From a bacterium (GTDB taxonomy: Bacteria > DUMJ01), in assembly GCA_012839925.1 (NCBI GenBank), contig DUMJ01000083.1, positions 3,116 through 67,115 on the forward strand: a stretch of 64,000 nt of DNA, read 5' to 3'. The position numbers and the translations under genes are program-made. Each line of letters starts with the position of its first letter. Position 1 is the stretch's first letter. The notes beneath the pieces are model-generated. The model searched no databases. It was given only the letters and a program-made list of their open reading frames with translations, and was not told the origin of the DNA. Below, piece by piece: positions 36,714 to 41,494 of the stretch.

Positions 36714-37691
36714 ATGATAGGAGTAATAGGGGCAACAGGACATTTAGGGAATGTCCTTACAAAAGAGCTCATAAAGAGAGGTTTCAAGGTAAGAGCAATT
36801 ATACCTCAAGGAGAAAATGTAGCCCATATAAAGGATGACCAGGTTGAGGTATACAGGGCAGATATTACTGATCTGTCCGTCATCACTGCCGCTATCGCAG
36901 GACTTGAATATGTCTTCCACTGTGCTGGCATTATTAATATCTCAAGCGGGAATAAAGACCTGATGTACAGAGTAAATGTGGAAGGAACAAAAAATGTTAT
37001 TAAAGCCTGTATCAGTAATAATATTAAACGACTTATATATACCAGCTCTGTCCACGCTATAGCTGCTCCTGATAAAGGAATAATTGATGAATCCCGTGAA
37101 ATCAACCCAGATAAAGTCTATGGCTTTTACGCAAAGACAAAGGCATTAGCTACACTTGCCATGTTAGAATCGGCAAGATCTGATCTTGACGCTGTCATTC
37201 TATGCCCTTCAGGAATTATAGGTCCTTTTGATTATAAGACGTCTGAGATTGGGCAGTTGATTCTGGATTTTGTAAATAGAAGGTTAAAAGCTTATATTGA
37301 TGGAGCATATAATTTTGTCGATGTTAGAGATGTAGCAGCTGGACACATTAACGCTATGGAAAAGGCTAGAAGAGGAGAGATATACATTTTAGGAGGAGAA
37401 ACTATTTCTGTATTTGATATTTTAACTCTTCTTGAGTCTATAACCGGAATAAAAAAACCAAAAATAAAGATACCATACTGTATAGCTTATGCAATATCTC
37501 CCTTTACCCCAATATATTACTCTATAGTTAAGACGAAACCTCTTTTCACCACCTATTCGATTAAGGTCCTGCGTTCAAATGCCAATATATCCAGTAAAAA
37601 GGCTATAACTGAGTTAAATTACTCTTTTAGACCTGTAAGAGAAACTATCAGAGATGCATACTGCTGGTTTAAAGAGCAGGGTAAAATATGA
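36714..37691 (+). CDS. NAD-dependent epimerase/dehydratase (extended SDR, DFR/HpnA-like)
   Basis: GATGHLG, FHCAG, VNVEGT, YTSS, YAKTK, VDVRDVA. Confidence 0.9.
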   Translation: MIGVIGATGHLGNVLTKELIKRGFKVRAIIPQGENVAHIKDDQVEVYRADITDLSVITAAIAGLEYVFHCAGIINISSGNKDLMYRVNVEGTKNVIKACISNNIKRLIYTSSVHAIAAPDKGIIDESREINPDKVYGFYAKTKALATLAMLESARSDLDAVILCPSGIIGPFDYKTSEIGQLILDFVNRRLKAYIDGAYNFVDVRDVAAGHINAMEKARRGEIYILGGETISVFDILTLLESITGIKKPKIKIPYCIAYAISPFTPIYYSIVKTKPLFTTYSIKVLRSNANISSKKAITELNYSFRPVRETIRDAYCWFKEQGKI

Positions 37692-37719
37692 AGGTAGAAT
37701 TTTGAAGAACGTCGCGCCC

Positions 37720-37748
37720 TTGACAACCTAAAAATTATAACCTATAAT
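37720..37748 (+). promoter_or_regulatory. Consensus sigma70 promoter with no downstream protein gene
   Basis: TTGACA (37720-37725), 17 bp, TATAAT (37743-37748). Confidence 0.8.
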
Positions 37749-37754
37749 GTTTAC

Positions 37755-37844
37755 GTCAAATTGATTACCTATTAATGGATGCTGAATGGCTCTTAAATGG
37801 GTATAAATGGGCAGGGTAGGATTCTCTGAGTCCTACCCTTTTTT
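37755..37844 (+). ncRNA. Putative ~90-nt small RNA with four AAUGG motifs
   Basis: Bounded by the consensus promoter and an intrinsic terminator; AATGG at 37774, 37785, 37796, 37806; no SD-led ORF. Confidence 0.6.
37813..37844 (+). terminator. Intrinsic terminator oriented for the + strand
   Basis: AGGGTAGGATTC-TCT-GAGTCCTACCCT followed by a T run; the T run overlaps the NYN stop codon. Confidence 0.85.
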
Positions 37845-38343
37845 ATATGTGTATTTTTTCCAGATAAGGCTTCAGTTCAGACAGGTCTATATATTTGTCA
37901 GCTGCGTTTCTCAGTTCTATAGCTATATGCCCCAGAGTAGATACAACTACTATCTCCTTACCCATTACGCGCAGGTATTCTATAACTCCCTCAAAATCAC
38001 TGTCTCCTGAAAACAGGTAGGACTCGTCATAATGAGAGGCAGTAAGGATGAGGTCCAATGTCATTTCAACATCCATATTACTCTTCTGCTTCTCTTCATT
38101 ATCCTGAGAGGAGATGGTTTTTAAAGGTTTCTTTCTAACCGTATACCCTATCAATGTTAGAGCCTTAAGAAAATTTTCCTGATTCTGATCGTTAACATCA
38201 TACCCTGAATAATAGAACGCATTATAAAAATCACTCTCTCCCCTGAAATATCTGAGTAACTTTTCAAAATCTACATTCCATTTTAATTTTCTTTGGACAA
38301 AATAGAGATTATTTCCATCTATAAATAAAGCCCTTCTTCCCAT
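37843..38343 (-). CDS. NYN domain (LabA/DUF88, PIN-like) putative ribonuclease
   Basis: LFIDGNNL, FYYS, K.NMDVEM.LD, LFSGDSDF, LRNAAD.YIDL; acidic catalytic residues intact. Own promoter TTGACA-16-TAAAAT at 38409-38382. Confidence 0.9.
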   Translation of the reverse strand: MGRRALFIDGNNLYFVQRKLKWNVDFEKLLRYFRGESDFYNAFYYSGYDVNDQNQENFLKALTLIGYTVRKKPLKTISSQDNEEKQKSNMDVEMTLDLILTASHYDESYLFSGDSDFEGVIEYLRVMGKEIVVVSTLGHIAIELRNAADKYIDLSELKPYLEKIHI

Positions 38344-38465
38344 ATAATGAAATTTTCCTCCTTAAAGGATTCATTAAAACAATTTTAACCTTCTCAGCTA
38401 TTCTGTCAATAGTCTAAGAAAATGTTAGGGGAAGGAAATGAAACATATGAGATTAATTTGTATCC

Positions 38466-38495
38466 TGTAGGGGCAATTCATGAATTGCCCCTACA
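38466..38495. repeat. GTAG-type REP-like perfect palindrome
   Basis: TGTAGGGGCAATTCATGAATTGCCCCTACA (30 bp). Confidence 0.8.
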
Positions 38496-38530
38496 ATTTC
38501 GTCTTTTATAATAAAAACACCATGCCTTTA

Positions 38531-38685
38531 TCCTCCCTCCCCCATCTCGGGGGAACGCTCTTACTTCTCACCCTCACCCCTACCCTCTCCCGTCAAGGGA
38601 GAGGGAAATAGGGGAGTCCATCAGGGGAACGTTCTCTTTTCTTCCGCCCCCATCTCGGGGGAGGATAGAGGTGGGGGGAGGGAGA
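38531..38685. repeat. GC-rich BoxC-like/MITE-like composite repeat
   Basis: CCCCCATCTCGGGGGA x2 (38539, 38647); CCCTCACCCCTACCCTCTCCC-GTCAA-GGGAGAGGG hairpin; outer inverted CTCCCTCCCCC / GGGGGAGGGAG. Confidence 0.65.
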
Positions 38686-38697
38686 TAGGTCAGAACT

Positions 38698-41494
<2,797 letters not shown>

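Follow-up and report, generated by a model that had tools for sequence, protein, structure and literature searches.

The stretch of DNA analysed here, referred to below as the window, comprises 64,000 nucleotides (nt) of contig DUMJ01000083.1 from the genome of an uncultured bacterium. Our subject is a compact unit at window positions 37720–37845 that appears to encode a small RNA (sRNA) with four copies of the word AAUGG (AATGG in the DNA, referred to as boxes), and that follows an epimerase gene (36714–37691, plus strand), with a convergent gene for a NYN domain protein ending on its other side. The features of the unit are as follows.

37720–37748, plus strand: sRNA promoter of the sigma-70 type, TTGACA (37720–37725) and TATAAT (37743–37748) separated by 17 nt, 12/12 matches
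37755–37845, plus strand: predicted small RNA of ~90 nt, with its start placed 7 nt past the −10 hexamer and its end at the T-run
37766–37773, plus strand: 5′ 'anti-box' segment, predicted partner of box 3 in minimum free energy and RNAalifold structures, with no covariation; absent in the second genus of the phylum (genome G006)
37774–37778, plus strand: AAUGG box 1, invariant in 9 distinct sequences
37785–37789, plus strand: AAUGG box 2, invariant in 9 distinct sequences, the next base always C
37796–37800, plus strand: AAUGG box 3, invariant in 9 distinct sequences, always followed by GU and predicted to be paired in the genus of the window's genome
37806–37810, plus strand: AAUGG box 4, invariant in 9 distinct sequences
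37813–37844, no strand assigned: terminator hairpin (37813–37839) and T-run, common to the sRNA and the convergent NYN gene

A preliminary description of this locus had reported a perfect TTGACA-17-TATAAT promoter, four AAUGG motifs at spacings of 11, 11 and 10 nt, and a hairpin whose U-run overlaps the stop codon of the NYN gene. All three observations hold. The promoter matches the consensus at every position, and perfect sites of this form number 17 in the 2.07 Mb genome against ~1 expected from base composition; a tRNA lies downstream of one of them. The boxes begin at 37774, 37785, 37796 and 37806 within an sRNA body of ~58 nt. The terminator stem has 12 pairs, six of them G–C, closed by a loop of three and followed by a T-run at 37839–37844 that shares two bases with the NYN stop codon (37843–37845). 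From the positions of promoter and terminator we infer that the transcript would begin at ~37755 and end at ~37845. A three-box pattern was found in none of 100 shuffles of the window and occurs only once in the whole genome. The boxes do not form a tandem array: Tandem Repeats Finder (TRF) reported none at 37755–37845, even with a minimum score of 30, and the 10–11-nt units have only the 5-nt box in common.

The phylum to which the bacterium belongs comprises seven species in two genera, all uncultured and represented by metagenome-assembled genomes (MAGs) only. We designate the window's genome G000 and the other six G001–G006, G006 being the second genus. Each of the seven genomes has a single match to the four-box pattern, a reversed-pattern control giving none, and in all seven an orthologue of the NYN gene (84–88% identical) adjoins the sRNA, convergent with it and, on its own strand, immediately upstream. 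A stricter pattern identified 24 loci in metagenome contigs, of which four are true copies that have the NYN neighbour as well as promoter, boxes and hairpin, and 20 are tandem repeats or coincidences; the same pattern found four loci in viral contigs, none a true copy. The 11 copies from the seven genomes and four metagenome contigs represent nine distinct sequences. Across these, all 20 box bases are invariant, whilst the three spacers show six, four and three variants. The sRNA promoter is kept in all 11 copies as TTGAC(A/T), 17–18 nt and TATAAT. The 5′ leader and the terminator are strongly divergent between the two genera, and the terminator stem differs in sequence in nearly every genome with its pairing always kept; RNAalifold identified seven pairs changed on both sides, six of them in this stem. 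Conservation of this kind is the signature of a transcribed element in which four short words are under selection, along with the presence of a terminal hairpin whatever its sequence. Selection on a long helix, a peptide or a repeat unit would have left a different pattern.

The case against a peptide deserves a closer look, as the preliminary description had considered that a 14-codon open reading frame (ORF) might be the conserved product. An ORF of 9–14 codons does begin at box 1 in all 11 copies, and within the genus it reads MGxxWLxNG. Between genera, however, the peptides of 9–14 amino acids differ (MDAEWLLNGYKWAG, MGLNGDRMGLNG and MGxxWLxNG), in both length and sequence, because one 10-nt spacing shifts the frame. 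No Shine-Dalgarno or other purine-rich site is found within 20 nt upstream of the ORF, and the peptide does not emerge as the conserved product.

As far as our searches reach, the putative family is restricted to this one phylum. A covariance model built from seven copies recovered the seven phylum genomes among the 151 searched at E ≤ 4.2e-11 but nothing convincing in the other 144, where the next best hit (E 0.013) was a bare terminator. When 41 genomes were searched with the 161-nt unit by BLAST, only its own genome gave a significant match; the top hit elsewhere (G005, E 0.012) sits within a coding region and was dismissed as chance. Scanning genome contigs for four boxes yielded at least 118 loci, and among the matches listed almost all are plain 11-nt tandem repeats unrelated to the sRNA. 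Intergenic tandem arrays with 11-nt units are, by the matches listed (L036–L153), common in MAGs of many phyla; a few degenerate arrays with variable spacers also appear among the AATGG-pattern matches listed (L039, L061 and L153, for example). Nor does the RNA belong to a known Rfam family, a possibility that had been raised at the outset. At gathering score, Rfam 15 gave no match on the sRNA, its matches in the window being three tRNAs elsewhere, and in a relaxed scan of 37400–38800 the best match on the sRNA was sbrA (E 0.56), whose 19.3 bits fall short of the gathering score of 45. The locus has the make-up of a stand-alone bacterial sRNA gene: its own promoter, its own terminator, conservation across species and no conserved ORF. 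Taken together, the feature is real, non-random and conserved across the whole of a small phylum, and it is absent from Rfam and from the literature searched. We rate the putative AAUGG-box RNA as a new sRNA family.

The gene facing the sRNA is described by two further features.

37843–38343, minus strand: LabA-like NYN domain protein of 166 amino acids, a predicted ribonuclease (PF01936, E 7.2e-29; invariant acidic residues; AlphaFold model)
38382–38409, minus strand: NYN promoter, TTGACA-16-TAAAAT, 11/12 matches; TTG(A/T)CA ... TAAAAT lies upstream of all seven orthologues

That the NYN gene is separately promoted and retains its catalytic Asp motifs had been proposed from the sequence, and both proposals are borne out. 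The promoter at 38409–38382 is its own, and the protein matches PF01936 over essentially its full length (101.6 bits against a cut-off of 24.2; profile positions 3–144 of 145). Residues D9, D91, E93, D97, D114 and D116, which we take from the PIN-like fold to be catalytic, are invariant across 17 aligned homologues of 41–88% identity. The AlphaFold model has a pLDDT (predicted local distance difference test score) of 92.7, its top structural matches being 2QIP (E 1.1e-11) and the NYN domain of MARF1. Two observations concern the start of the gene: an AGGAGG ribosome-binding site lies unusually far (13–16 nt) from the ATG in all seven genomes (window 38344–38375 and the orthologous loci), and the start context, UAUGGG/UUAUGGG, has AUGGG in common with boxes 1 and 3.

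The protein is a full-length member of the LabA-like NYN group (PF01936, NYN.COG1432, 2QIP). In a 2017 survey of the PIN superfamily this group counts 8,754 sequences and is described as of unknown function, with functional studies lacking; the survey's passages on it (sections 11 and 22) mention no RNA partner (PMC5499597). For this family, a neighbouring RNA dedicated to the protein would be a novelty. In the literature searched, no paper linked NYN to type III toxin–antitoxin systems, and the one paper found with both 'LabA-like' and 'sRNA' appears to be a Bradyrhizobium proteomics study. We do not place the locus among anti-phage defence systems: PADLOC gave only a domain-level match (positions 150–299 of a 310-position NYN model) together with a weaker match to HEC-09, and the flanking genes encode a GH5 glycosidase, an epimerase, enolase and pyruvate kinase.

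Gene order bears on whether the RNA is tied to NYN. The gene to the left of the sRNA differs among the genomes compared, being common only to G005 and G001 (the G004 contig ends shortly beyond the sRNA promoter), whilst on the right-hand side NYN is followed by enolase in six of the seven genomes and by another gene in G005. In the window, a repeat element of ~330 nt has moreover been inserted between NYN and enolase. The flanks have therefore been rearranged on both sides but never between sRNA and NYN, making the pair the unit that stays intact.

Folding of 37755–37846 gives −33.5 kcal/mol against −19.35 ± 3.18 for shuffled sequences (z −4.45), with none of 200 shuffles as stable; the terminator is the source of most of this stability. 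Besides the terminator, the consensus fold contains a stem of 10 pairs that joins a 5′ segment (mostly AUUACCUGUU among the copies) to box 3 and its downstream bases, with boxes 1 and 2 in the apical part and box 4 in the linker. No covariation supports this stem, which the second genus essentially lacks. The computed probability that box 3 is unpaired at 37 °C is 0.01–0.06 in six genomes and 0.59 in G006, rising at 70 °C to ~0.25 and ~0.80, respectively.

Comparison with known systems helps to place the RNA. The CsrB, RsmY and RsmZ sponges carry multiple GGA or A(N)GGA motifs, of which many sit in hairpin loops. Like them, the AAUGG-box RNA has its own promoter and terminator and repeats a short G-containing word, and CsrA is encoded in the genome (PF02599, 85.5 bits, contig C16). 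The word here, however, is AAUGG and not A(N)GGA. GGA is not conserved, since GG may be followed by A, C, G or U, box 2 always reading GGC, box 3 always GGG and box 4 being followed by G, A, U or C; as the preliminary description had noted, only one repeat fits ANGGA, GGA being read in G000 by box 1 alone. In addition, the predicted structures put no box consistently in a hairpin loop and no Rfam sponge model matches. The CsrA gene itself sits with FliW and a flagellin-family gene, a setting in which the antagonist is a protein, FliW, and no RNA is known to take part. These three genes (flagellin-N, FliW (PF02623) and CsrA) lie in a row at C16:975–2514 (L175), the flagellar type of CsrA circuit.

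Type III toxin–antitoxin systems of the ToxIN kind consist of tandem direct repeats of ~34–36 nt in an RNA encoded upstream of the toxin on the same strand, with a terminator between the two. The present locus is similar in that a gene for a (here predicted) ribonuclease lies beside that of a repeat-containing RNA with a terminator between them. The preliminary description had judged geometry and repeat size to be unlike type III systems, and we concur: sRNA and NYN are convergent at all 11 loci, and in place of ~36-nt tandem repeats there are 5-nt boxes in dissimilar 10–11-nt units that TRF does not register. The nuclease, moreover, is of the NYN type (PF01936) and not ToxN/AbiQ-like, and its neighbours are housekeeping genes (enolase and pyruvate kinase).

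The RNA targets of TRAP and HutP consist of (G/U)AG or UAG words with 2–4-nt spacers, in mRNA leaders that control a downstream gene. They resemble the AAUGG-box RNA in that short identical words recur at even intervals, there in single-stranded RNA and contacted by multiple subunits of one oligomer, as the boxes may be; but here the word has five bases, the period is 10–11 nt and the RNA stands alone. To our knowledge, AAUGG is unlike the words read by any of the repeat-reading RNA-binding proteins CsrA, TRAP, HutP and Hfq/Crc.

What, then, might the RNA do? We propose that the locus is a stand-alone sRNA gene, probably transcribed strongly and independently into an RNA of ~85–105 nt, whose function would reside in the four invariant AAUGG boxes, 10–11 nt apart, upstream of a GC-rich terminator hairpin. 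The boxes would be contact points for a protein able to bind several of them at once, and the sRNA would serve as a decoy, sponge or scaffold. That it is a phylum-restricted RNA bound multivalently by a protein through its boxes is the reading we favour, albeit tentatively. NYN is the leading, though unproven, candidate for the protein, only because the sRNA and the NYN gene are the smallest unit that stays together, and a little under half of the weight we place on multivalent binding depends on it. More specifically, the RNA could be a dedicated partner of NYN, either an inhibitor or decoy restraining an unspecific nuclease or a cofactor directing the nuclease to its targets; we regard this as possible but doubtful.

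A number of observations weigh against multivalent binding, or against NYN as the binder. The conservation described above comes from a small phylum of seven species in two genera, and so from few independent lineages. Four RNA-library runs, available as contigs only, cover the region but carry no information on transcript start, end, strand or level. For 10 of the 11 copies (G000 and nine others of its genus) the prediction buries box 3 in a stem, such that the single-stranded motifs of the preliminary description, and with them the picture of four exposed boxes, survive only in part. In the genome as a whole, paired AATGG boxes at the same spacing were found 15 times (three of them here) against ~11.6 expected, so that they are not enriched elsewhere, and no regulon of mRNAs with similar double sites is visible.

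Concerning NYN in particular, sRNA and NYN share one hairpin without a spacer, and their linkage could therefore merely reflect the absence of a neutral break point. Outside the phylum the association disappears: at 31 NYN loci of other phyla (homologues of 23–49% identity, including the closest 40–50% groups and leaving out one locus without a tblastn hit), a test for periodic repeats, namely any 5-mer present in at least four copies, 9–13 nt apart, within 500 nt, was positive at none, against seven of seven loci inside the phylum. The expectation that promoter, repeats and terminator would be conserved beside NYN is thus confirmed at 11 of 11 loci within the phylum and, as regards periodic repeats, fails at all 31 beyond it. 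The NYN subfamily is widespread and well conserved, occurring in named Deinococcus species and in Gracilibacteria at 41–51% identity, and consequently looks like a housekeeping enzyme rather than a toxin. The sole characterised bacterial NYN enzyme that we found is described as sequence-nonspecific and Mn-dependent (PMC11346440). Finally, 1,400 long ORFs contain 2,562 sense-strand copies of AATGG against 2,677 expected. This ratio of 0.957 shows that the word is not avoided in coding strands, which argues against a nuclease that cuts constitutively at AAUGG, and the earlier suggestion that AAUGG is the target motif of NYN is not favoured. Of the proposed sRNA–NYN link there remains the constant association within the phylum, set against its absence elsewhere, the lack of AATGG avoidance and the predicted pairing of box 3.

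The first alternative to multivalent protein binding is that the AAUGG-box RNA regulates by base pairing, its repeated G-rich word (AAUGGGU or AAUGGC) acting as a redundant seed against sites resembling (A)CCCAUU. Small RNAs with several copies of one seed motif offer a likeness, and short conserved words in a variable, largely unstructured body followed by a terminator are the usual anatomy of a trans-acting sRNA. The word can evidently base-pair, as box 3 has a predicted partner in the anti-box (37766–37773) of G000 and of nine further copies of its genus. Against this, Hfq was not found in the genome, which is 96.66% complete, and the four-box pattern has no reverse-strand match elsewhere in it, hence no site complementary to the array. 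A duplex-energy scan of 1,955 candidate start regions produced no outlier (best −34.3 kcal/mol against a mean of −18.2 ± 4.1), and the best contiguous match used a spacer specific to G000. We also know of no functional mRNA signal corresponding to the complement, CCAUU, which counts against pairing of this kind. On balance we consider it unlikely.

Alternatively, the unit could be a cis-acting module for NYN in which a convergent promoter and a two-way terminator set the 3′ end or the stability of the NYN mRNA, whether through transcriptional interference, through pairing of overlapping 3′ ends, or through CCAUU words serving as a C-rich, G-poor tract resembling a Rho-loading site. This would explain the strict physical linkage. 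The hairpin starts 3 nt past the NYN stop codon and is necessarily part of the NYN transcript, and the plus-strand T-run is poor in several relatives (G001 and G004, for example), making read-through into NYN antisense plausible. On the NYN strand, the sRNA body presents CCAUU words at 11-nt spacing, with 14 C against 7 G, and Rho is encoded in the genome. However, a Rho-loading tract requires only spaced pyrimidine–C pairs, and Rho loading would not explain why every one of the four boxes keeps all five of its bases. Two adjacent G–U pairs of the box 3 stem are possible only on the plus-strand RNA, and the strong consensus promoter kept in all copies suggests an abundant product rather than mere interference. 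A cis-acting role is in our view quite unlikely.

The boxes might instead be read in DNA, as four direct repeats in helical phase (10–11 bp) for a DNA-binding protein. Winged-helix response regulators of the OmpR/PhoB type bind phased direct repeats, and the 11/11/10 spacing, with gaps of 5–6 bp, would put the boxes on one face of B-DNA. The repeats nevertheless lie at about +20 to +56 from the predicted start, inside a unit closed by a terminator and with no downstream gene to control; no similar array occurs elsewhere in the genome, and both the conserved promoter and the covarying terminator would be left unexplained. This makes a DNA site distinctly improbable. A micropeptide translated from the ATG of box 1 is the least credible proposal of all: although every copy has the short ORF and it is recognisable within the genus, its length and sequence change between genera, its variable positions are confined to the spacers with no bias toward silent changes, and it lacks a ribosome-binding site in the 20 nt upstream where NYN has AGGAGG in seven of seven genomes.

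Several further ideas were set aside. A two-layer G-quadruplex formed from the four GG runs would need loops of ~9 nt, which we judged too long. T-box-like pairing of UGGN with the NCCA 3′ end of a tRNA was rejected, the base after UGG being mostly G or C and a misfit with the common discriminator base. A boxA-like GCUCUUAAA present in G000 is not conserved. An array of elemental RNA polymerase pause sites was considered as well, the consensus G(−10)...U(−1)G(+1) fitting the spacing of the boxes.

The surroundings of the pair offer some observations of their own. The spacer between NYN and enolase contains a multi-copy repeat element of ~330 nt (window 38404–38740) with a 13-pair palindrome at 38466–38495 and G+C-rich hairpins. 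BLAST of the element against the genome returned 172 high-scoring segment pairs, 35 of them at least 100 nt long and on 25 contigs. As the spacer measures ~470 nt here and ~100 nt in five relatives, the element is taken to be an insertion. Its edge coincides with the −35 hexamer of the NYN promoter, and the RNA-library contigs show loose ends at 38404 and 38413. On the other side, the 27 nt at 37700–37726, up to and including the −35 hexamer of the sRNA, share 93% identity with the region that holds the promoter of two paired tRNA-Met(CAT) genes (contig C37:6624–6650). Co-regulation with the AUG-decoding tRNA was considered and dropped, the similarity being absent in all five relatives checked. 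In four close-kin genomes (L014–L017) a segment of the form GGTTAA...AATTACCT(A/G)T can be seen by eye both at the 5′ end of the sRNA and upstream of the NYN promoter. In G006 (L012), the gene beside the sRNA promoter resembles an IS256-type transposase, by eye from its translation, which would be consistent with a hot spot of rearrangement on the left side.

Independently of NYN, the AAUGG-box RNA offers a clean case of apparent selection on four short words at fixed spacing. Since AAUGG matches none of the words that we recall for repeat-reading RNA-binding proteins, it points to an as yet undescribed RNA-binding activity in a phylum known only from MAGs. Should the sRNA prove to bind NYN or be cut by it, the very large LabA-like family would gain a defined RNA ligand amenable to in vitro tests. 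If the NYN reading is true, this family, whose function is listed as unknown, would have its first RNA partner, and sRNA and nuclease would together form a nuclease–RNA pair with an architecture unlike that of type III toxin–antitoxin systems.

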